NCBI GenBank assembly: GCA_020437385.1
Contig: JAGQWL010000049.1
Coordinates: forward strand, 20,827-84,826
Reading direction: 5' to 3'
Source of the DNA: Bacteroidota bacterium
Lineage (GTDB): Bacteria > Bacteroidota > Rhodothermia > Rhodothermales > JABDKH01
DNA length: 64,000 nucleotides
Shown: positions 3,949 through 49,196 of the stretch, in pieces
Position numbering within the stretch: the stretch's first letter is position 1
How the letters are laid out: the number at the start of each line of letters is the position of its first letter
Translations under genes and position numbers: made by a program
The notes under the pieces: generated by a model
The model's input: only the letters and a program-made list of their open reading frames with translations
The model's database searches: none
What the model was told of the DNA's origin: nothing

Positions 3949-4872
3949 ATGGGAACCTTCTGGATGCCGGAGGGAGCCTCGACCATGTCGGGCGAGGTGG
4001 ATTCACTCTTCTACCTCGTGTACTGGATCTCGGTCGTGATCTTCATCGGAGTCGTCGCGGCGATGGCGTACTTCGCTATCAAGTATCGGCGGACGCGTGA
4101 GTCTTACGTTCCACCCATCGTCCACGAGAATCGGTTCCTGGAGGCGGCGATGATCTTCATCCCGCTCATCCTCACGATGGTTGTCTTCACGTTCGGTTTC
4201 AAAACGTACCTGAAGATGAACATCGCTCCGCCAACCGCCTACACGATCGAAGCGGTCGCGAGCCAGTGGAAGTGGGACTTCACGTACCCGAACGGAAAGC
4301 AGGTAACGGGTGAGCTCCACGTGCCGGAAGGCAAGCCCGTCAAGGTTCATTCGACGAGCATGGATGTCCTGCACAGCTTCTTTATCCCGCAATTCCGGGT
4401 GAAGCAGGACGTGGTGCCGAATCGATACTCCTCGGTCTGGTTTCAGGCTACGAAGGTCGACTCTTTCGACGTGTTCTGTACAGAGTATTGCGGGACATCG
4501 CACTCGGGCATGCTCGCAAAGGTTATCGTCCATAAACCGGAAGACTTCGAAGCCTGGCTGAACGCAGGCGACGACCGCCCGCTGGATGTGCAGGGCGAAT
4601 CGTTGTTCAAGGCGAACAGCTGTAACACCTGTCACTCGATCGATGGCTCCAGAATCGTCGGCCCGACATTCAAGGGCCTCTTCGGCAGCTCGCGTACGTT
4701 TGCGGACGGTACGACGCGTACTGCGGATGAAGACTACCTGCGTCAGTCCATTATGCAGCCTGGATCCGAGATCGTGGAGTCGTATCCGAACGTGATGCCG
4801 GCGTCGTACGGTACGACGCTGCGGCCCGACGACGTGACGAAGATCATTGAGTACATCAAGACCCTCAAGTAG
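3949..4872 (+). CDS. ctaC: Cytochrome c oxidase subunit II with fused cytochrome c domain (caa3-type)
   Basis: 307-aa ORF with two N-terminal TM helices, the CuA site [12 protein letters not shown] and a C-terminal heme c motif CNTCHS. Confidence 0.9.
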
Positions 4873-4877
4873 CACTC

Positions 4878-6563
4878 ATGAGCGAGACAGTGGCCGTTCC
4901 GGCGTCGATTGATACGTCGGTGCCGAAGAATTACCTGAATCACGACAAGTCGATCAAGTCGTGGCTCCTCACGCTGGACCACAAGCGTATCGCGCTTCTT
5001 TACCTCGTCACGATCTCGATCGTGTTCCTGGTAGCGGGGGTCCTGGCGTTGCTGGTTCGTGCGGAGTTGTTTACCGCCGGCGAAACGCTGATGAAACCGG
5101 ATACCTACAATCAGTTCTTCTCGTTGCACGGGATCCTGATGGTGTTCCTCTTCATTGTTCCATCGGTTCCGGCGATCATGGGCAACTTCGTGATGCCCAT
5201 GCAGCTCGGAGCGATCGACGTCGCCTTCCCACGGCTGAACCTTGCGAGCTACTACATCTATCTGATTGGTGGCGTTCTTGTTGTGACAGCGATCCTGGCG
5301 GGCAACATCGACACGGGCTGGACCTTCTACACTCCCTACTCGGCGCGGCTCGGATCAAGTGTCATCTTCATGACGCTCGCGGTATTTATCGCCGGCTTTT
5401 CGTCCATCCTCACCGGTCTGAACTTTATTGTCACGATCCACAAGATGCGTGCACCCGGGTTGACGTGGAACCGCCTTCCACTGTTCGTCTGGAGTATCTA
5501 TGCGACAAGCATCGTGCAGGTGCTCGCGACTCCCGTGATCGGCATCACGATGCTGCTTCTGCTGCTTGAGAAGACCCTGCAGATTGGCATCTTCGATCCT
5601 GCCCTCGGCGGTGACCCGATCCTCTTCCAGCACTTCTTCTGGTTCTATTCGCACCCGGCCGTCTATATCATGATTCTGCCTGCGTTCGGTATCATCTCAG
5701 ATCTGATGGGCGTCTTCTCGCGGCACGAGGTGCAGGGTTACAAGTTTGTTGCGTTGAGCTCGGTAGCGATCGCATTTCTCGGATTCCTCGTTTGGGGACA
5801 CCACATGTTCGTCTCGGGACAGTCCGCAATCTCGTCGATCGTGTTCTCCCTGATCACCTACCTGATCGGCATCCCGACCGGCGTGAAGGTCCTCAACTGG
5901 GTCGGAACGATGTACCGCGGCTCGGTCTCCTTCAAGACGCCAATGCTGTACGCGTTGAGCTTCCTGTTCCTGTTTACGATTGGTGGACTCACCGGCGTGG
6001 CGCTCGGTGTATTGGGGCTCGACATCCATCTTCACGACACGTACTTCGTTGTGGCGCACTTCCACTATGTGATGATGGGAGGGACGGTCATCGCCGCAAT
6101 CGGCGGACTCCACTACTGGTGGCCGAAGATCACCGGGAAGATGTACAACGAGACCATGGGGAGTATCGCGGCCGTCCTGATCTTCATCGGTTTCAACGTG
6201 ACGTTCTTCACGCAGTTTGTCCTGGGCACGAAGGGAATGCCGCGCAGGTACTACGATTACCAGATTCAGTACGAGGCGCTTCATCAGATCTCGACTGTCG
6301 GATCGTGGATCCTCGCTTCGGGTCTTTTCCTCGTGCTGTTTACGTTTATCCACTCTTTGATGAAGGGCAAGAAGGCGGGATCGAACCCCTGGGGAGCCGC
6401 AACGCTTGAGTGGACCCATACTGCGTCGCCGCCGTCTCCGCATAATTTCGACGAGCAGCCGATCGTCACGCACGGCCCCTACGACTATCACGCGCTCGCC
6501 CGTGTCAGTGGTGACGGCGCCGCACAGACCTCTGAACCCGAACTGTCTGAGTCGCGTCACTAG
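4878..6563 (+). CDS. ctaD: Cytochrome c oxidase subunit I
   Basis: 561-aa 12-TM protein with the conserved blocks [26 protein letters not shown] and [10 protein letters not shown]. Confidence 0.95.
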
Positions 6564-7356: not shown

Positions 7357-7764
7357 ATGGATCACGCGTCTCACGGTCACCACATCACGCCCAAGTCTCT
7401 GCTGATCAAGGTCTTCGGCTCACTGATTCTCTTGACGATCCTCACGGTTGCTGTCTCTCGAGTCCATCTTGGCGCACTGAACGTGCCGGTCGCGATTGCA
7501 ATCGCCGTCGTTAAGATGATGCTCGTCGTGACGGTGTTTATGGCCGTCAAATGGGACAACAAGGTGAATGCGCTGGTGATCGGATTGAGCGCATTGTTTG
7601 TCTCGATTTTTCTGATTTTCACGCTCTTCGATACCGCTTACCGCGGTGATCTGTCGAACGTGGATCGGGTCCCGATCTCGGATCAACAGCGGCAACAAAG
7701 CGCCGAAATGGCTCCGGCCGATGCCGGCGCCGCAGCCTCTGAGATGCCGGCATCGGGCCACTAG
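7357..7764 (+). CDS. Cytochrome c oxidase subunit IV-like small membrane protein
   Basis: 135-aa ORF with the N-terminal HGHHITPKS motif followed by three TM helices, as in bacterial oxidase subunit IV proteins. It is the last gene of the oxidase block and has an Ala-rich C-terminal tail. Confidence 0.75.
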   Translation: MDHASHGHHITPKSLLIKVFGSLILLTILTVAVSRVHLGALNVPVAIAIAVVKMMLVVTVFMAVKWDNKVNALVIGLSALFVSIFLIFTLFDTAYRGDLSNVDRVPISDQQRQQSAEMAPADAGAAASEMPASGH

Positions 7765-7916
7765 GTCCGCTGAGGCTTAACAGAATTTGCATAAAGCAGT
7801 ATCGCGTTTTGCCTCTTGATCGCCTAAGTTCTTCCATTCAGACAGCCGCTCGCGCTCGTTTTCCCTGCGGCGCGCGCTAGTGCCAATCGACAAGAATCCC
7901 GTGTCGATCCACCGGT

Positions 7917-8258
7917 TTGGGCAAGTGGTTGTTTCCCAAGGCTTTCTTAGAGATGCTTCTTTTCCTCACGCTCGTCGCGATACCGATCGTGTTCTGCATG
8001 ATCTCGTGGGTGGTGTTTACCACTTCGCGGATATGCCGCTTCGAGGACACACACGCAGCAGAGCAGTACGCACTGCAGGCCAGACGCCGCATTCGTGAGG
8101 CCGCCGCGTCGTCAATCCGCGTAGGATCTGCTACCATACAGGACGAACTGGGCCTGCAGGTTGCATCGGGCTACGCCAAGTCGTACCAGCTTCGATACGA
8201 CAAATCATCGGGAATCCCTTCACTCTGGCACGACGAGCTTTGGACTCGCCGGAACTGA
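7917..8258 (+). CDS. Hypothetical protein with one N-terminal TM helix
   Basis: 113-aa ORF. The track start is TTG; an in-frame ATG lies at 7953. Third positions are mostly G/C. No recognisable domain. Confidence 0.35.
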   Translation: MGKWLFPKAFLEMLLFLTLVAIPIVFCMISWVVFTTSRICRFEDTHAAEQYALQARRRIREAAASSIRVGSATIQDELGLQVASGYAKSYQLRYDKSSGIPSLWHDELWTRRN

Positions 8259-8293
8259 AAGCGCTTCTAGCCAGATTCAGGGCGTGACTGCCG

Positions 8294-8905
8294 CTACTCC
8301 CTGGTGAAGGGAACGGCCGTGTCCATCAGAAAGGTCGAGAGGGCTTCGTACGCCGCCTCCGCAGCCGGAGACCGCGGGTCGTCCTCCACCGTCGCGAGTC
8401 CCGTAACCAACTTTACGATCGAGCAGGGCACGCCGTGCGTAGCGGCAACATAGGCGAGCGGATAGCCGATCGAGTCCGTGATGTCCGCGATTCGCTGCCA
8501 GTAGGTGAGATCCTTTCCTTCCTTGACGCTGTGGTCCTGCGTCACCAGACGCCGTTCGACGATCGACTTGAACGGGTTGTCCAGGGGCATCCGCGGATAC
8601 GTTGGAGCGGAGAGTTCGACCCTGTCGCCCTCGAAAACCTGACCTACTGAAACGAGTGTTCCTTCCGGCAGGTCCTCAACGAGTGCCCTCGCGGTGCCTG
8701 CATGAATAAGTCGCTGCAGCTTTTGTTGACGCAGGAGTCTTTCCGTGCGAAGTGTGGCCTTGATTTTGCCGACGCCGATGATGGTTACGAGAATGGAATC
8801 GTCCTGCACGGTCTCATCCTCAGCCAGACCGTCGAAGCGGCCCCTGCCGTAATTCTTGAGGAACGGTCTTGCCTCCTCGACGGATGCAAAAACAAATCCG
8901 GTCAT
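8294..8905 (-). CDS. Nucleoside phosphorylase superfamily protein (MTA/SAH nucleosidase- or futalosine hydrolase-like)
   Basis: The track ORF 8294..9124 overlaps metF. I trimmed it to the internal ATG (CAT at 8903-8905), giving 203 aa starting MTGFVFASVEEARPF. The layout (small beta-alpha N-terminus, IIGVGK, C-terminal D..G.P.A motifs) resembles the PNP_UDP_1 family. Assignment is by eye only. Confidence 0.55.
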   Translation of the reverse strand: MTGFVFASVEEARPFLKNYGRGRFDGLAEDETVQDDSILVTIIGVGKIKATLRTERLLRQQKLQRLIHAGTARALVEDLPEGTLVSVGQVFEGDRVELSAPTYPRMPLDNPFKSIVERRLVTQDHSVKEGKDLTYWQRIADITDSIGYPLAYVAATHGVPCSIVKLVTGLATVEDDPRSPAAEAAYEALSTFLMDTAVPFTRE

Positions 8906-8987
8906 TTCGTATTTAAAGGCGTCTGGTGCACGTGACTTACTCTGAAAGACCGGCCGATACACGCTACCGTTTCGTCCGATACCCTCA

Positions 8988-9944
8988 ATGAAGATAACCG
9001 AACTGCTTGATAACCGGAAGGAGACGCTGATCTCGTACGAGATTATCCCGCCGGCACGCGGTGGATCCATCCGCGAGATTCTCGACATTGTCGAGGAGCT
9101 CGCCCCGTTCGATCCTCCGTTCATTGACGTGACGAGTCACAGTGCGCAAGTGGACTATGAGGAGATGCCGGACGGAACGTGGCGTCGCCGCGTCAAGCGA
9201 AAGCGTCCCGGCACACTTGGGTTGTGCGCGTCCATCCGCGGCCGCTACGGCATTGAGACGGTTCCGCACCTGCTGTGCGAAGGCTTTACACGAGAGGAAA
9301 CCGAGGACGCGTTGATCGAACTCAATTACCTCGGCATCACGAACATCATGGCGCTGCGAGGGGACGAGAGCGGGTACTCAAAACCGATCCCGGCGAGCCG
9401 CTCGCGCAACGAATACGCTGTCGATCTCGTCCGCCAGATCTCCGACATGAATGCCGGGAAGTATCTCGAGCCCCTGATAGATCCCGCACCGGCAGACTTC
9501 TGCATTGGCGTGGCCGGCTATCCCGAGAAGCACTTTCAGGCGCCCAACATCTCGTGGGACATCGCCAATCTGAAGAAGAAGGTCGAAGCGGGCGCGTCCT
9601 ACATTACGACGCAGATGTTCTTCGACAATCGCTACTTCTTCGAGTTTGTCGATCGTTGTCGCGCAGCCGGAATTACGGTTCCGATCATTCCGGGACTGAA
9701 AATCATCGCCTCCAAGCGCCAGATGCGTCTGCTGCCTGCGAACTTCTACATCGACATTCCCGAAGAATTGTCGCAGGAGGTAGACGCATGCGATGATCGC
9801 CACGTTTCAGAGATTGGAATCGCGTGGGCAGTCAAGCAGGCGGGCGAACTCATTTCGGCCGGCGTACCCTGTCTACATTTCTATATCATGAAGACGGCAA
9901 AGCATGCGAAACAGGTTGTCGCCAGATTGCGCCAATATGCGTGA
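8988..9944 (+). CDS. metF: Methylenetetrahydrofolate reductase
   Basis: 318-aa ORF with the MetF blocks SYEIIPP, VPHLLCEGFTREE, NIMALRGD and GYPEKH. Confidence 0.9.
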   Translation: MKITELLDNRKETLISYEIIPPARGGSIREILDIVEELAPFDPPFIDVTSHSAQVDYEEMPDGTWRRRVKRKRPGTLGLCASIRGRYGIETVPHLLCEGFTREETEDALIELNYLGITNIMALRGDESGYSKPIPASRSRNEYAVDLVRQISDMNAGKYLEPLIDPAPADFCIGVAGYPEKHFQAPNISWDIANLKKKVEAGASYITTQMFFDNRYFFEFVDRCRAAGITVPIIPGLKIIASKRQMRLLPANFYIDIPEELSQEVDACDDRHVSEIGIAWAVKQAGELISAGVPCLHFYIMKTAKHAKQVVARLRQYA

Positions 9945-41921: not shown

Positions 41922-42542
41922 ATGTTGTCAGCAGCACCAATCACGACCTTTCTACTGGCGGTAAACGTTCTGGTTAGCCTTCACGCCCTGTTCGTGGATC
42001 CCGGCGCGTTGGATCGGTACGCGTTTCGGCCGGTTGAAATGCGGGAGCGCAAGGAGTGGTACCGAATGATCACCGGGGCGTTTCTGCACGCCAACCTGGT
42101 CCACCTGCTATTCAACATGATGACGCTGTACTTCTTCGGGCCATATCTGGAGGCGCGGCGTCTTGGTGAGTTGCCGTTTCTGGTCGTTTACTTCGGGTCC
42201 TTGTTGGCGGCGCACGCCTATGCGTACGTTCGGCATCGCAACGATCCGGATTATGCGGCTGTTGGGGCTTCCGGTGCGATTTCCGGAGTGTTGCTTTCTT
42301 TCTGTCTGTTCGAGCCGATGTCGCCGATCTACATCTTTCTGATCCCGGTTGGGATACCGGCGATTTTGTTTGCCGTTCTGTTTATCGCGTTTTCGAGTTA
42401 CGCTGTTCGGGATGCGGACCGGGGCGGCGGTGGTCGGATCGCGCACGACGCGCACCTCGGCGGTGCGATTGCGGGGCTCGTTCTGACGATTATTCTGTCG
42501 CCGAGTGTGCTGCGGATCTTCGTTGCGCAGCTCCCCTTTTGA
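41922..42542 (+). CDS. Rhomboid family intramembrane serine protease
   Basis: 206-aa ORF with six TM helices, the catalytic Ser motif GASGAISGV and the His motif HLGGAIAG. Confidence 0.85.
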   Translation: MLSAAPITTFLLAVNVLVSLHALFVDPGALDRYAFRPVEMRERKEWYRMITGAFLHANLVHLLFNMMTLYFFGPYLEARRLGELPFLVVYFGSLLAAHAYAYVRHRNDPDYAAVGASGAISGVLLSFCLFEPMSPIYIFLIPVGIPAILFAVLFIAFSSYAVRDADRGGGGRIAHDAHLGGAIAGLVLTIILSPSVLRIFVAQLPF

Positions 42543-42580
42543 ATCCGTTATTGCAGCCGGATCATTTCTTTGCGTTTGGT
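42543..42580 (+). terminator. Candidate intrinsic terminator of the rhomboid gene
   Basis: A 5-bp stem (ATCCG 42543-42547 / CGGAT 42558-42562) is followed by the T-rich tail CATTTCTTTGCGTTT. The stem is weak. Confidence 0.35.
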
Positions 42581-42604
42581 GAACTTTCGGCGCTAGTTCC
42601 GTTA

Positions 42605-42639
42605 TTGCTTGTATGGTGCATCTAAAAGAGGTACTTTGA
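42605..42639 (+). promoter_or_regulatory. Bacteroidota-type promoter-like motif (CTTG ... TACTTTG)
   Basis: TACTTTG at 42632-42638 fits the TAnnTTTG -7 element, with CTTG 20 nt upstream (42608-42611). This is a motif match only. Confidence 0.25.
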
Positions 42640-42737
42640 CGTGCCTCATGTTGCCTGATGCCGATACCACCACGTCGGTACTTCAGTCGCTCCTGATGGG
42701 CAATAAGTCCCGGCTCCGCACAGGCCGGGACTTTTAG
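42640..42737 (+). ncRNA. Candidate ~95-nt small RNA (or 29-codon micro-ORF transcript) ending in a strong terminator
   Basis: The unit is bounded by the promoter-like motif and the 10-bp terminator hairpin. Internal pairings can be drawn by hand: UGCCGA 42658-42663 with UCGGUA 42674-42679, and UUGCC 42651-42655 with GGCAA 42699-42703. It contains ATG 42648 to TAG 42735-42737 (MLPDADTTTSVLQSLLMGNKSRLRTGRDF). Confidence 0.3.
42705..42735 (+). terminator. Rho-independent terminator hairpin
   Basis: A perfect 10-bp stem (AAGTCCCGGC 42705-42714 / GCCGGGACTT 42724-42733) with a 9-nt loop is followed by a TTTT run (42632 numbering does not apply here; the Ts are at 42732-42735). Confidence 0.65.
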
Positions 42738-42874
42738 TCAGAATCAGCGCTACGAGGCCGCAAATCTCTCGAAAGCCCTGCATTTGCTCCAAATGCTTGA
42801 GAATGTGCAGAAACGGTGGACAAAGCGTGGACACTTCTGTGCAAACATTGTGGATCGAATGAGTCCTCCGTTTG

Positions 42875-42903
42875 TTGACCGCGGTCGCCCCTGCGGGTAT
42901 TAT
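42875..42903 (+). promoter_or_regulatory. Near-consensus sigma70-type promoter TTGACC-N17-TATTAT
   Basis: TTGACC lies at 42875-42880, the spacer is exactly 17 nt, and TATTAT lies at 42898-42903. That is 5/6 and 5/6 against TTGACA/TATAAT. TTTG at 42871-42874 plus TATTATTG also nearly fits the Bacteroidota -33/-7 pattern. The site is in a gene-free tract. Confidence 0.45.
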
Positions 42904-43199
42904 TGATCCGTGCCTTCGGGCACTGTTCCTTGACGCGACTGAAGGTCTCCAGGCTACATGAGGCTGACCATTTCACGACGACGGGTGCGGCCTGTCGTCG
43001 GTCTACCGAACATGATGATCTTACCGGGCGCGGCGGCTTGCCGTTGCGGTCCGAGGGGGAGTGATCGGTTTGGTGCGCCAGGTGGTTGTCTTGCCGCTTA
43101 GGCTGACGCCCCTTTGCGGTGAGTAGATCACCGGAGCCGGAACGTTCGTCACTTGTTTGACTCACGGCCGTCGGGACTCGTCCTGACACCGAGCTAGAT

Positions 43200-43262
43200 G
43201 GAATCGAGATTCTCGGAATCGGGGTTCTCGGAAACGAGATTCCTGGAAAAGAGATTCTTGAA
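43200..43262. repeat. Four tandem copies of a 15-bp unit GGAAWCGAGATTCTC
   Basis: Read directly: ggaatcgagattctc / ggaatcggggttctc / ggaaacgagattcct / ggaaaagagattctt / gaa. Across unit junctions, GATTC-TCG-GAATC can form 5-bp mini-hairpins. Confidence 0.85.
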
Positions 43263-43385
43263 ACCACTATCGCGAGCTGCTGAGTAAGCCGTGACAGATC
43301 TCCGGCTGGCTGGGTTCGCAACGCTGCTACGGTGGCGCTCGAATCGAGCAAGCACGCCAACACGTCAGTTCGACGATACAATCGG

Positions 43386-43470
43386 TCGACACCGACTCGC
43401 TTTTGAGAACGACTCTCTCACGAGATCGACTCTCTTGCGCGAGCACGAATCGACTTTTCATCGAACTCGT
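43386..43470. repeat. Degenerate direct repeats beginning CGACTC (units of 17, 17, 24 and 11 bp), each with an internal CTC...GAG inverted pair
   Basis: Read directly: cgactcgcttttgagaa / cgactctctcacgagat / cgactctcttgcgcgagcacgaat / cgacttttcat / cgaactcg. Confidence 0.6.
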
Positions 43471-44055
43471 TGTGAGCAGGAAGCATCACTCGAAAGAGGC
43501 GATCGCTTCGAAATGGTTGGAACGCCGCGGGTCGATGATCCAGCGGCGATAGGCGCGGTCCTGCTCGATTCGTCGGGCAGGCGGCGGCAAGGTGTGGTTT
43601 CGTAAAGGCTGACTTGTCAGCTTGAACGGAATCCGCCACTTGCAGCGGAAGCTTCGTTAAGTCGAAGCTGAATTGCGTCGGCACGACGAACGCGGCTACG
43701 GCCGTGTCTGGCGTGCTTAGCGAGCCGAGCACCGAAAGGTGCCGACGGCCCGACCAAGGTAGCTGGCTGCAATCACCGTGTGCCCATGCGGTGAACTACG
43801 GAAGGCTTTGCGCTCTCCGGGACATGCAGCCTCGTGGATCGACGACCCGGTCGACGGCTTGTCCGTCAGGTCGAATACGTCGATTCCGAAAACACGGAGA
43901 TCCGGCCTCCCAATGCCGGGTGCAATTCGCGAGATTGTGCTCGACAGGGAGGCCTCGTGTCGGGGGATTCCGGTCAGTGACCGGGCATCGTCAGGTCGAA
44001 GCCGTAGTGTACCCCGACCGTCGCCGGTTCAGCCGCCAGATCACGGCAACGCAAA

Positions 44056-44784
44056 TCAGCCCGTGCAGAATCGTACAAGATCGCTCCATGCATCGAATGC
44101 AAACAGGCGATCCCGCGCCACATCGGTGCCAACCGCCTTCGTCGCATCGGGAGTGTACCACGCTACGTTCCAGCCGGAGGCCAGCCCACCTTCAACGTCC
44201 GAGTGCCAGGAGTCGCCCACGTACAGAACGTTCTCTGCTGCACAACCCGCCTGCGACAACGCGTATGCGAAGAGCTTCGGACTCGGCTTCATGTGGCCAA
44301 ACTCCTCGCTTATCACAATCGTTGAGGACCGGTCGCGCAGGTCGCGGAAGCGATTGAGCTTCTCACGCTGCGTTGCGGCAAATCCATTCGTGATTATCCC
44401 GACGGACGTCGAGTCCGCGATCCTGCGGAATGCGTCCAGCGCTCCCTCAACCGGCACCCAGAACCGGGAGTACAGCTCCATGTAGCGGTCCGACAGGTCC
44501 AGCGCATCGATCATCAGGCCGTGCCGTTTGACAATGATCGCGAAGCGGTCGTGCCTGAGCTGATCGCCGGTAATCTCCGCAAGGGAATACTGCCGCCAAA
44601 GCTCGACGTTCGAGTCGTGATACTCGCGCTGCAGCGTCTCGAGGTCAAAAGTGAGCTCTTCAACACCACCCAATTCCGTGTGAAGTGCCGCAAGCGCACT
44701 TCGTTCAGCGACGCGGTGATCAAGCAGCGTGTCATCCAGATCGAAATAGACGAAGTCGAATTGACTAGCCATCCGCTCAGTCAA
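44056..44784 (-). CDS. HAD superfamily hydrolase (YjjG/phosphatase-like)
   Basis: 242-aa ORF with motif I FDLDDTLLDH (DxDxT), a cap domain and motif IV VGDSWHSDVEGG. It has an 8-nt overlap with the upstream gene. An alternative start lies at 44772. Confidence 0.85.
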   Translation of the reverse strand: MTERMASQFDFVYFDLDDTLLDHRVAERSALAALHTELGGVEELTFDLETLQREYHDSNVELWRQYSLAEITGDQLRHDRFAIIVKRHGLMIDALDLSDRYMELYSRFWVPVEGALDAFRRIADSTSVGIITNGFAATQREKLNRFRDLRDRSSTIVISEEFGHMKPSPKLFAYALSQAGCAAENVLYVGDSWHSDVEGGLASGWNVAWYTPDATKAVGTDVARDRLFAFDAWSDLVRFCTG

Positions 44785-45916
44785 ACCTCATTTCGAACAT
44801 CGCGTATTCCTTGTCCTTCACCGATCGGATGTTGATCAACGAGTTGATCAGCTTGTCGTTGATGTCGAGGACCCAGCTCATCTCACACCCGCGGTATCCG
44901 TATCGCGGACCGTCGTGGATGATTGCATGGTTCATCAGGGCGTCGAGCCCTTTTCCCTGCCAGGCCTGACGAACGCCCATCAACAATGTGCGGACTTCAG
45001 ATATGCCGCCAAACTTTGCCCGGGCGAGAAGCTTTGGAAGCCCAAACGGGAGCAGCTTACCGTCGCGGACTTCCTTTAATGCGAGGTTCATGTCAGGCAG
45101 CGAGATCGAGAACGCGACGGGTGTACCTTCGTGCTCGACTATGTAGACGATTCGCGGATCCACGACCTGCTTCATTTCGTGGGCGAGCTGCTTGAACTCT
45201 GCCGTCGTCATGGGGACGTGGCCCCAGTTGTTGCTCCACGCCTCGTTGTAGATGTCGAGCACCGTTTCCGCCTCTTGCTCGAACCGGGTCATATCGAGCG
45301 TGCGAATCTTGAGGCCGGGGTTCCGCCGATAGACAAGGTCCACGCCTCGGTCGAGCTTTGACACATCCACGTACTTTTCGTGAACGTAATAGGCCCACAT
45401 CGTCATTGCGCGCGTGAAGCCATAGCGCTCAAGAAATGCTTCGTAGTAAGACTTGTTGTAGGGCATCATGATCGACGGCCGGCGATCGAAACCATCTACG
45501 AGAAGGCCGCAGATGTCGTTCATCGATGGGTTCGTCGGACCGCGCACGCCGGTCAGTCCGCGTTCCTTCAGCCAGTCGGTTGCCGCATCGAGCAGCTGCC
45601 GTGCGACGTCGTAGTCCTCGATCACTTCAAAGAAGCCGAAGAAGCCGTTTCCGTCGTTGTACTTCTTGAGGTGCATGCCGTTGACGATTGCTGCAATCCG
45701 TCCGACGGTGCGGCCGGTCGTATCGGTAGCAAGGAACGGTTGGATTTCACCATGCTCGAAGAAGGCGTTCTTGGAGGAATTGAGTGCCTTCGCGATGTCG
45801 AGACGCAGGGGGCCTACGTAGTTGGGTTCGTCCGCGTAGAAGGTGTAGGGAAAGTCAATGAAGCGTCGAAGCTCGCTCTTCGTCGTTGTCGGACGAATCG
45901 AGACAGGTTGACTCAT
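44777..45916 (-). CDS. GNAT-fold acyl-CoA N-acyltransferase-like protein (~380-aa family)
   Basis: 379-aa ORF. The blocks FIDFPYTFYADEPNYVGPL, GFFGFFEVIEDYD and GLTGVRGPTNPSMND recall a conserved family of about 380 aa annotated as GNAT-like. This comes from memory and is not verified. Confidence 0.55.
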   Translation of the reverse strand: MSQPVSIRPTTTKSELRRFIDFPYTFYADEPNYVGPLRLDIAKALNSSKNAFFEHGEIQPFLATDTTGRTVGRIAAIVNGMHLKKYNDGNGFFGFFEVIEDYDVARQLLDAATDWLKERGLTGVRGPTNPSMNDICGLLVDGFDRRPSIMMPYNKSYYEAFLERYGFTRAMTMWAYYVHEKYVDVSKLDRGVDLVYRRNPGLKIRTLDMTRFEQEAETVLDIYNEAWSNNWGHVPMTTAEFKQLAHEMKQVVDPRIVYIVEHEGTPVAFSISLPDMNLALKEVRDGKLLPFGLPKLLARAKFGGISEVRTLLMGVRQAWQGKGLDALMNHAIIHDGPRYGYRGCEMSWVLDINDKLINSLINIRSVKDKEYAMFEMRFD

Positions 45917-48590: not shown

Positions 48591-49181
48591 TCAGAATCGG
48601 AGAGTGAGTTGGGTTCGCAATCCTAACGCCGATGGTTCGACTGCGACGAGCAAGTTGTCACCTACATCGAAATCCATCAGATGCGCGCTCACGTACGCGT
48701 CCAGGATGCTCAGCCCGTATGCAACTCCGATTCCCAGTACCGAAAGATCGCGATTTCTACGTAGAGCATCCCGCGCAGGTTTTATAGTGGATGCGGAGAG
48801 GCCAATTCCGCCGAATTTCGCGACAAGGCGTTCATATTCTGACTCCAGAGCGGCCTTCGGGTTTGTCTCGCCTTCGGGCGTGATCTCCTCGTAGGCCTTG
48901 TACTGGTAGGCGTGACGGTAGAGGAGATACTTGTCGTTCAGTCGAACCGTATTTGCCGCCAGGCCGCCAAGAACGAGGTAGACGATCGGCAGCTTGCCGT
49001 ACTGCCGGTTGTAGACCTGCCCAAGCCCGGGAAACACCGCCGCTCGAACGAGCGCGGTTCTCGGAGAATGGTTCTCCCTCCAGGACTCTTGAGAGGGCCG
49101 TTCCGCGAGTTGAGCGTGAGCCGGCCTGCCGCAACCGGTACCGGCCAACATCGCCAGTGCGAACATGAAGGCGCTTCTCAT
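48591..49181 (-). CDS. DUF5683 domain protein
   Basis: 196-aa ORF with a signal peptide, the FPGLGQVYNRQYGKLPIVYLVLGG motif and a C-terminal beta-like tail. It has the typical position directly after parB seen in Bacteroidota. Confidence 0.75.
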   Translation of the reverse strand: MRSAFMFALAMLAGTGCGRPAHAQLAERPSQESWRENHSPRTALVRAAVFPGLGQVYNRQYGKLPIVYLVLGGLAANTVRLNDKYLLYRHAYQYKAYEEITPEGETNPKAALESEYERLVAKFGGIGLSASTIKPARDALRRNRDLSVLGIGVAYGLSILDAYVSAHLMDFDVGDNLLVAVEPSALGLRTQLTLRF

Positions 49182-49196
49182 GTTGCCTCTACCTGA

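Follow-up and report, generated by a model that had tools for sequence, protein, structure and literature searches.

New classes of large structured RNA are rare in bacteria, and each one (RNase P, tmRNA, OLE, GOLLD, ROOL, and HEARO/omega RNA) opened new biology. For OLE, ROOL, and GOLLD, higher-order assembly or a protein partner has been shown. To our knowledge, none of OLE, GOLLD, ROOL, and raiA has a dedicated, co-inherited small RNA partner, and we know of no large non-coding RNA (ncRNA) of bacteria that works as a two-chain machine completed by a small RNA. Known sponges of small RNAs (sRNAs) are short, often processed fragments with a single seed-mimic site, and they are not co-located with the gene of the sRNA. 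Here, we analyzed a 64,000-nucleotide stretch of DNA from a Rhodothermales bacterium (Bacteroidota; GenBank assembly GCA_020437385.1, contig JAGQWL010000049.1, positions 20,827 to 84,826 of the forward strand), which we refer to as the window, and within it a 1,513-nucleotide (nt) tract at positions 42543-44055, between a rhomboid gene and a HAD gene. We conclude, with a probability of roughly 0.8, that this tract is a conserved locus with two plus-strand RNA genes, one for a small RNA (A) and one for a large RNA (B), and that A serves B as its dedicated partner or as a switch or, alternatively, that B titrates A. RNA gene(s) had been among the options raised for the tract in an earlier note on this DNA, and this option is the one that held: there are two such genes on the plus strand, with their own promoters and with covariation-supported structure. 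Read from left to right, the tract consists of ~100 nt of control sequence for A, the 95-nt RNA A, ~175 nt of control sequence for B, the 1,058-nt RNA B, and a spacer of ~90 nt.

Relatives of the locus were obtained from a scan with the rhomboid protein, taking one genome per species. The window itself is 99.4% identical to contig JAWKNV010000004.1 of assembly GCA_041391525.1. In the Rhodothermales relatives, a rhomboid protein with 49-57% identity (76% in one) was followed by a gap of 1.1-2 kb and then by the HAD gene on the opposite strand. blastn found a core of 55-70 nt (window 42895-42963, the 5' core of B) that was 83-87% identical in those relatives, and tblastx matches to this core occurred in all frames with equal strength, which indicates that the constraint acts on nucleotides and not on a protein. 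These two comparisons, which the earlier note had proposed, found the tract to be conserved and syntenic rather than strain-specific. The same note had named an intact protein homologue in relatives, or a complete lack of conservation, as observations that would speak against a functional element; both were looked for in the relatives, and neither was found.

Alignment of seven of these gaps gave a fixed plus-strand layout, in which two CCGTTATTG boxes, a -7 box, and a terminated element of ~95 nt are followed by GTGGA-type repeats, a TTGACA/TATAAT-type promoter, and a long element. The 5' and 3' parts of the long element are conserved, its middle is variable, and a canonical terminator comes after it in most clades. 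The layout is kept in more than 30 distinct lineages, which places the tract far beyond chance. Essentially every genomic contig, including that of the cultured Rhodocaloribacter litoris (CP076718.1), keeps the order of rhomboid gene, boxes, A, repeats, B, and minus-strand HAD gene. On CP076718.1, A (~90 nt) is predicted at ~2,778,349-2,778,437 and B (~0.8 kb) at ~2,778,564-2,779,362, both on the plus strand. An exact-pattern scan of metagenome contigs with the core of B yielded 63 loci (related loci are denoted below by L and a number). Wherever flanks exist among these, the rhomboid gene, the boxes, and the small RNA lie upstream, and the downstream neighbors are genes for the HAD protein, a GNAT-like protein of 379 amino acids, and a KBL-like aminotransferase, all on the minus strand. 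The RNA locus is widespread in marine, estuarine, and saline metagenomes.

The small RNA has the following parts in the window:

42641-42735, plus strand: RNA A, ~95 nt, made up of a 5' single-stranded block, a variable covarying hairpin, two further conserved blocks, and an intrinsic terminator
42644-42658, plus strand: block 1 of A, CCUCAUGUUGCCUGA, complementary to B at 42949-42963
42681-42690, plus strand: block 2 of A, CUUCAGUCGC, exact reverse complement of B at 42935-42944
42696-42702, plus strand: block 3 of A, AUGGGCA, complementary to the loop UGCCCAU of B at 43781-43787
42707-42735, plus strand: intrinsic terminator of A, GUCCCGGCU...GGCCGGGAC followed by UUUU

A covariance model of RNA A (R1), built from 23 sequences, matched the window once (42641-42734, 62 bits, E = 5e-15). 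Every member of the clade gave one match per locus, beside B, and there was no match in other Bacteroidota loci or in three Rhodothermales loci that lack B. Both the internal hairpin and the terminator stem of A covary, with terminator pairs GC18/AU5 and CG10/UA6/UG5. Judged from its sequence only, RNA A has the make-up of a trans-acting terminated sRNA: its gene stands by itself and has both a Rho-independent terminator and a conserved promoter element. It also has what is expected of a seed, namely conserved single-stranded blocks that are complementary to a target and kept by compensatory change.

The large RNA is closed by pairing of its two ends, through helices that we call H1 and H2, and it has these elements:

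42910-43967, plus strand: RNA B, ~1,058 nt to the end of the closing helix, starting seven nt after TATTAT
42910-42923, plus strand: hairpin at the 5' end of B, GUGCC-UUCG-GGCAC (94% paired; compensatory changes present)
42926-42938, plus strand: 5' strand of H1, UUCCUUGACGCGA, pairing with 43955-43967 (13 pairs, 87% paired)
43955-43967, plus strand: 3' strand of H1, UCGUGUCGGGGGA, partner of 42926-42938
42944-42950, plus strand: 5' strand of H2, GGUCUCC, pairing with 43896-43902 (93% paired)
43896-43902, plus strand: 3' strand of H2, GGAGAUC, partner of 42944-42950
43904-43911 with 43947-43954, plus strand: helix H3, GGCCUCCC with GGGAGGCC, around a capped hairpin that varies (8 pairs, 5 of them changed on both sides)
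43773-43794, plus strand: GCCC-loop hairpin, UCACCGUGU-GCCC-AUGCGGUGA, stem 100% paired, with one-sided changes

The true 3' end of B probably lies within ~25 nt downstream of 43967, and B homologues in more than 30 lineages measure 0.71-1.24 kb. The 5' strand of H1 is invariant, while its 3' strand drifts through G.U, A-U, and G-C pairs only; on the other strand these would include C.A mismatches, and the RNA is therefore the plus strand. In H2, locus L120 shows a compensatory change in cis (GAAUCUC with AGAUUC). Over 23 distinct sequences, the 41 pairs of the terminal domain were 88.9% paired, compared with 30-48% in slid controls, and 16 of them had changed on both sides; none of 500 shuffles matched the observed values. 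The minimum free energy (MFE) of B from the window was -510.5 kcal/mol, against -426.5 ± 8.8 kcal/mol for shuffles (z = -9.5) and -423 kcal/mol for its reverse complement, so that the plus strand is 87 kcal/mol more stable. The unconstrained MFE fold regained H1, H2, H3, and the GCCC hairpin. An RNAalifold consensus of ten full-length short forms (713-738 nt) contained 116 pairs, 91.7% of them canonical, and 54 pairs changed on both sides versus 15-28 in slid controls, as scored on the same alignment that had yielded the structure. The predicted loops of B are mostly UUCG (146), GCAA (62), and GAAA (45), and CTTCGG reaches up to 17 copies per kb in B homologues versus 0.5 per kb in the window background. 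RNA B fits the descriptive class of large structured ncRNAs, being longer than 500 nt, non-coding, and extensively structured with support from covariation.

All three conserved blocks of A find their complement in B. Its two target blocks at the 5' end are:

42935-42944, plus strand: GCGACUGAAG, 5' target in B for block 2 of A
42949-42963, plus strand: CCAGGCUACAUGAGG, 5' target in B for block 1 of A

The target of block 2 is the linker between H1 and H2 together with its edges, the target of block 1 is the strand adjoining H2 on its 3' side, and the target of block 3 is the GCCC loop, ~850 nt downstream of the 5' sites. Across the 64-kb window, block 2 of A is the sole exact reverse-complement match to the 10-mer of B, and block 1 is the sole match with two or fewer mismatches to the reverse complement of the 15-mer. 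In a gap-free block alignment of 34 intermolecular pairs from 29 distinct lineages, 90.1% were paired (27-36% in slid controls) and ten had changed on both sides (1-5 in slid controls), values reached by none of 500 shuffles. Each of the three A:B helices has at least one compensated pair, and the block-1 helix has five. In R. litoris, ACUGA in B has become AUGGA and UCAGU in A has become UCCGU. Loci L062 and L071 carry two such exchanges, UGCCCAU to UGUCCAU in B with AUGGGCA to AUGGACA in A, and CAUGAGG to CAUGAAG in B with CCUCAUG to CUUCAUG in A. Four lineages have GCUACAUG in place of GCUGCAUG in B together with CAUGU in place of CAUGC in A, and compensation in block 2 is seen both in R. 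litoris and in the window clade. Where A alone has changed, the change is nearly always a transition that retains a wobble pair. The block-2 position of L120 is compensated in cis within H2, which helps to delimit the cis helices from the trans helices. Together, these comparisons establish, at the level of sequence, the non-coding nature of the two RNAs, their strand, their structure in cis, and a conserved and compensated complementarity in trans.

Both genes are preceded by candidate control elements:

42545-42553, plus strand: first CCGTTATTG box, an invariant 9-mer directly after the rhomboid stop codon
42599-42607, plus strand: second CCGTTATTG box, ~25 nt upstream of the -7 box of RNA A
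42632-42638, plus strand: candidate -7 element of RNA A, TACTTTG, Bacteroidota-type (TAnnTTTG-like), recognized by sequence
42816-42857, plus strand: four (N)GTGSA direct repeats with an exact 11-nt period, upstream of the -35 box of B
42875-42903, plus strand: predicted promoter of RNA B, TTGACC, 17 nt, TATTAT, from a promoter scan

In nearly every related locus, the pair of CCGTTATTG boxes lies upstream of A, on the same strand and 54-87 nt apart, beginning directly behind the rhomboid stop codon, and among ~0.7 Mb of fetched DNA this 9-mer is essentially confined to the RNA locus. The boxes may act as a DNA site or belong to a transcript. We rejected it as a genome-wide regulon motif, as it is rare elsewhere and its sole other exact copy in the window (11148) falls within a coding region. 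The TACTTTG box probably serves as the promoter of RNA A; a TAtcTTt motif stands 5-8 nt ahead of the conserved 5' end of A in every lineage. In relatives, TTGAC and TATAAT-like boxes occur at a constant distance from the 5' hairpin of B. The versions of the 11-nt-period repeats found in relatives, TGTGGATAT / TTGTGGATTAA, match 8 of 9 DnaA-box positions (for example, L113 at 4866-4900), and the repeats could be DnaA sites or an array for an OmpR/PhoB-type response regulator. Two promoter types thus adjoin, and both are conserved in the clade: a -7 box for A and the classical TTGACA, 17 nt, TATAAT arrangement for B. This difference hints at different sigma factors or different regulation of the two genes.

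We infer from the compensated complementarity that A and B pair physically in vivo, and the functions that we propose downstream of this pairing are of the same kind. The first gene would give rise to the ~95-nt terminated RNA A from its Bacteroidota-type -7 promoter behind the two CCGTTATTG boxes, and the second gene to the ~1.06-kb RNA B from a TTGACA/TATAAT-type promoter behind the GTGGA repeats with their 11-nt period. Pairing of the 5' and 3' ends of B through H1 and H2 closes the molecule, leaving a conserved core, formed by the terminal junction, H3, and the GCCC-loop hairpin, around an interior that is an evolutionarily plastic array of hairpins. The three blocks of A would then pair in trans with the linker between H1 and H2, with the strand 3' of H2, and with the distant GCCC loop, so that A would staple the terminal junction of B to this loop while partly invading the inner ends of H1 and H2. 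By completing or remodeling the core, A may control the conformation or stability of B or, equivalently, B may titrate A. B itself could be a scaffold, a ribonucleoprotein (RNP), a sponge, or a catalyst. The unlike promoter types and the upstream boxes imply that A and B are regulated separately, which favors a switch or titration. A stronger version, which we put forward tentatively as a possibility, is an obligate two-chain RNA machine, in which the ~1-kb RNA provides a core (H1/H2 junction plus GCCC hairpin) that is completed in trans by the separately regulated small RNA. If this version were true, the pair would represent a new class of ornate RNA in bacteria, and cells would turn a large RNA scaffold, an RNP, or a catalyst on or off by supplying the strand that it lacks.

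A different use of the same complementarity would be that A acts in trans, as a general sRNA, on mRNAs from elsewhere in the genome and B is chiefly its sponge or decoy, the complex serving to regulate A. This is rather unlikely in our judgment, even though the differing promoter types and upstream boxes of A and B, which point to independent regulation, would suit it. So would the block-1 site of B (AGGCUxCAUGAGG), which resembles a ribosome-binding site plus start codon, and a 12-nt perfect complement to block 1 of A at a lipoprotein start codon (49176-49190). The latter site was not conserved in nine orthologous loci, the search for targets having covered 64 kb of genome, and it is probably due to chance or specific to the lineage. 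Furthermore, B accounts for every conserved block of A outside the terminator, and a sponge would need neither three sites nor an ornate body of ~1 kb, nor conservation above that of neighboring proteins. As an observation on the lipoprotein site itself, the minus-strand sequence AGAGGCAACATGAGA at 49176-49190 spans the start codon of the lipoprotein-like gene (MRSAFMFALAMLAGTGC...). It is also conceivable, and to us quite improbable, that A and B are unrelated neighbors whose complementarity is fortuitous or a relic, for instance of an inverted partial duplication. The global duplex energy cannot be told apart from that of shuffles, and most paired columns are invariant and hence uninformative, both of which agree with such an origin. 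However, the complementary segments coincide with the conserved blocks of both RNAs, the ten pairs changed on both sides are spread over three helices and several independent lineages, and one-sided changes mostly keep a wobble; a relic would decay, not co-vary.

Several observations weigh against our reading of A and B as a paired RNA locus. Whole-molecule RNAduplex predictions for A with B were no better than those for shuffled A (z = -0.1 to -2.4); this energy does not discriminate, since a GC-rich RNA of 1 kb offers a 60-nt RNA long duplexes with gaps at any place, and tests of ungapped helices, exact matches, and covariation took its place. The per-species test of ungapped helix length was moderately significant only (0 to 48 of 1000 shuffles), and a few pairs are mismatched in single lineages, in block 1 for L115 and at the block-2 edge for L016 and L120. 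The invariance of B in L050-L112 is partly an artifact of the search with the exact core pattern, and the unbiased, protein-anchored set amounts to ~15 loci. Three Rhodothermales loci, L118, L119, and L122, have neither A nor B beside the rhomboid gene, so the pair is not universal; this absence in a syntenic position means that it is lineage-restricted, having been lost or never gained there. The transcription boundaries of A and B in this genome are predicted from sequence features, and the window clade does not have the canonical terminator that other clades have after B. A hint of assembled transcripts comes from the metagenome collection: of its 63 contigs, 11 have their first nucleotide 0-7 nt ahead of the core of B, and eight of those 11, 1.07-1.24 kb long, also end at its 3' closing strand. 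The JGI project numbers concerned include Ga0182069/70/77, Ga0123366/70, Ga0210319/26/27, Ga0316586, and Ga0075484, several of which may belong to metatranscriptomes; breaks of the assembly graph at conserved blocks are an alternative source of such end-matched contigs.

Protein coding, replication, and mobile DNA would each explain the tract in another way. The genes on either side of it are:

41922-42542, plus strand: rhomboid gene, Pfam PF01694, E = 1.6e-30
44056-44772, minus strand: HAD hydrolase gene, Pfam PF13419 and PF00702

A degraded, unrecognised small, or fast-evolving protein gene, with the conserved parts as its untranslated regions, is very improbable. It is true that the tract contains open reading frames (ORFs) of 104-215 amino acids and that a gene caller annotated the one of 209 amino acids in the related contig L002. 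Against this, the gap ORFs that were tested have no coding GC-frame signature, and a Pfam search of four gap ORFs gave zero matches. The G+C fractions at the first, second, and third codon positions are ~0.60/0.42/0.70 in real genes of the window and 0.59/0.56/0.54 in the largest gap ORF (42734-43417, minus strand), which has no coding signature. In addition, tblastx matches are equally strong in all frames, none of the more than 15 protein-anchored loci of relatives has an intact gene in its gap, and conservation obeys base-pairing rules, including G.U. A small-ORF reading of B was rejected as well, since in many lineages its conserved AUG is followed by AGG and then by the stop codon UAA, which ends the frame after two codons. 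A chromosomal origin (oriC) or other replication-related locus, which had been raised earlier, is likewise very improbable. Its appeal lies in the GTGGA/TGTGGAT repeats, which resemble DnaA boxes (8/9 positions in relatives) and stand in one orientation at a spacing of whole helical turns. However, there are two to four boxes only, all in the array upstream of the promoter of B, and neither exact nor consensus DnaA boxes are enriched in the tract. The G+C fraction is 0.53-0.63 throughout, with no AT-rich unwinding element and no skew switch, the genes lying to its right face the tract instead of diverging, and more than 1 kb of the tract is covarying RNA structure. The earlier suggestion of a recently decayed insertion, or more broadly of a mobile-element or phage remnant, we consider extremely improbable. 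Tandem repeats and an atypical coding density would fit it, yet the locus is single-copy and always keeps its syntenic position throughout an order-level clade whose rhomboid proteins are only ~50-57% identical, it has no flanking repeats, its GC content resembles that of the genome around it, and the core of B has no match in 2.9 million viral contigs.

Most of what the earlier note had described in the tract was borne out. No supportable gene is present in 42543-44055, as no ORF there has a coding signature or a Pfam match. A sigma70-like promoter was found by the promoter scan at 42875-42903, a strong terminator lies at 42707-42735, and the many stable hairpins are reflected in the MFE z-score of -9.5. 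Three statements stood in part. The contrast in G+C at third codon positions applies to the gap ORF, which is indeed low (0.54), whereas the ~80% cited for genes is true of few of them, ~0.65-0.72 being typical. The tract is the largest gap, but perhaps not the only large one, as an ORF-poor stretch of ~520 nt (7765-8287), likewise with no supportable gene, exceeds the claimed limit of 350 bp. Of the two tandem-repeat blocks, the first is present as 15 nt x 4 at 43185-43259, and the second (~43396-43460) is too degenerate for repeat finders, including TRF.

The middle of B consists of lineage-specific tandem arrays of UUCG- and GNRA-capped hairpins, and such modules explain the repeats and the many hairpins noticed earlier. 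The equivalent place holds 48-nt units in L069, 32-nt units in L089, and a 545-nt internal duplication in L085. The corresponding feature of the window and that which follows the closing helix are:

43185-43259, plus strand: four tandem 15-nt units, GGAAUCGAGAUUCUC, inside the variable middle of B
43970-43984, plus strand: hairpin after the closing helix of B, CCGGUCAGUGACCGG, without a U tract

The duplication in L085 (1-1235) is a tandem one of ~545 nt with 88-94% identity; it takes in the entire 3' domain as well as the GCCC hairpin and results in two potential sites for block 3 of A. In L117 (4588-4696), B is extended at its 5' end by ~110 nt, which separate its promoter from the GTTCC core and include GAUGGGCAC, a second occurrence of the block-3 sequence of A. 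The clade that has no U tract after B (43968-44055 in the window) comprises the window, L011/L076, L094, L114, and L117. The convergent HAD gene also has no obvious terminator, and the 3' ends of B and of the HAD transcript may therefore overlap.

Among the loci that lack the pair, L118 (3001-4858), L119 (3001-3905), and L122 (2601-4478) are GC-rich, and one is labelled Rubricoccaceae; their rhomboid gene is followed directly by the 379-amino-acid gene, the HAD gene, or a small lipoprotein gene. In the window, the gene for the 379-amino-acid protein (44777-45916, minus strand) has a sub-threshold match to GNAT PF00583 (19.7 bits versus a cut-off of 20.7). It always precedes the gene for the KBL/AONS-like aminotransferase, and the two look like a conserved gene pair. 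The ORF-poor stretch at 7765-8287 lies between an ORF at 7357-7764 (plus strand) and an ORF at 8294-9124 (minus strand), and the ORFs inside it (7917-8258, plus; 7877-8137, minus) had no Pfam match. It and 42543-44055 were the only ORF-poor candidates of the window to survive inspection.

Searches for a known identity of the two RNAs were negative. Rfam 15 gave no match for the whole window at gathering score. For the tract, at E-values up to 10, it gave only terminator-like chance matches (15-19 bits versus thresholds of 37-50), and for fifteen homologous loci, at E-values up to 1, two unrelated sub-threshold matches. The families without a match at gathering threshold include OLE, GOLLD, ROOL, raiA, HEARO, 6S, RNase P, SRP, and the group I and II introns. 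The Rfam comparison had been proposed in the earlier note; that no family matched is counted here as a result and not as a refutation of the RNA-gene reading. ARAGORN found no tRNA and no one- or two-piece tmRNA in the window. A GGA sponge of the CsrB/RsmZ type was rejected, B from the window having 16.9 GGA per kb versus 19.4 expected (z = -0.7), and B from other lineages ranging from z = -1.6 to +5.3. A type I toxin-antitoxin identity was also rejected, as B has neither a conserved short hydrophobic ORF nor frame-specific conservation. No description of either RNA came to light in literature searches or when terms were looked for in the '50 bacterial genomes' paper, and A and B are apparently a pair of RNA genes hitherto undescribed.

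If A and B are what we take them to be, B joins the large RNA classes as a member that is as long as or longer than earlier ones and that is conserved above its neighboring proteins. Its dedicated small RNA gene, co-varying with three elements of B, is a feature not described for the earlier classes. The logic of compensatory mutation makes the pairing directly testable, and R. litoris is a cultured and fully sequenced carrier. The locus also illustrates that the plain criterion of a long ORF-free gap still uncovers RNA genes that Rfam-based annotation leaves blank.

How the two RNAs relate to described systems depends on which of their features is considered. B is like OLE, GOLLD, ROOL, and raiA in its size class (0.7-1.2 kb) and in its dense, covariation-supported helices rich in GNRA and UUCG, and also in being non-coding, having its own promoter and terminator, and being restricted to one lineage. 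It differs from them in that no sequence or structure match was found even at E-values of 1-10, in its taxon, the Rhodothermales, in its closure by a long-range helix with an invariant 5' strand, and in its hypervariable interior of tandemly duplicated hairpins. The interior, in which short hairpin modules are repeated and arrays grow and shrink through tandem duplication, recalls CsrB/RsmZ; in B, however, no repeat motif is common to the lineages, and the termini are conserved instead of the repeats. Taken together, A and B resemble sRNA-sponge pairs (ChiX with the chbBC spacer, GcvB with SroC, and RyhB/RybB with 3'ETS-leuZ), in which a small terminated RNA has extended complementarity to another ncRNA, and A and B are, as in those pairs, probably regulated independently. 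In contrast to them, the A/B site is tripartite, the partner is a structured RNA of ~1 kb, the two genes lie side by side and are inherited together, and the search of 64 kb yielded no conserved mRNA target. Type I toxin-antitoxin loci (tisB/istR-1, zor/orz, and shoB/ohsC) share with this locus a small RNA gene just upstream whose product pairs over ~15-20 nt with the 5' region of a longer transcript, whereas B encodes no conserved small hydrophobic peptide, is 0.7-1.2 kb long, shows conservation that tracks its structure, and offers three pairing sites. Lastly, two-piece tmRNA and fragmented rRNA are comparable in that a core is apparently assembled from two chains through conserved intermolecular helices. 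In those systems the chains come from one precursor, whereas A and B have two promoters, and they carry no tRNA-like domain, no tag ORF, and no similarity to rRNA, as judged by ARAGORN and Rfam.

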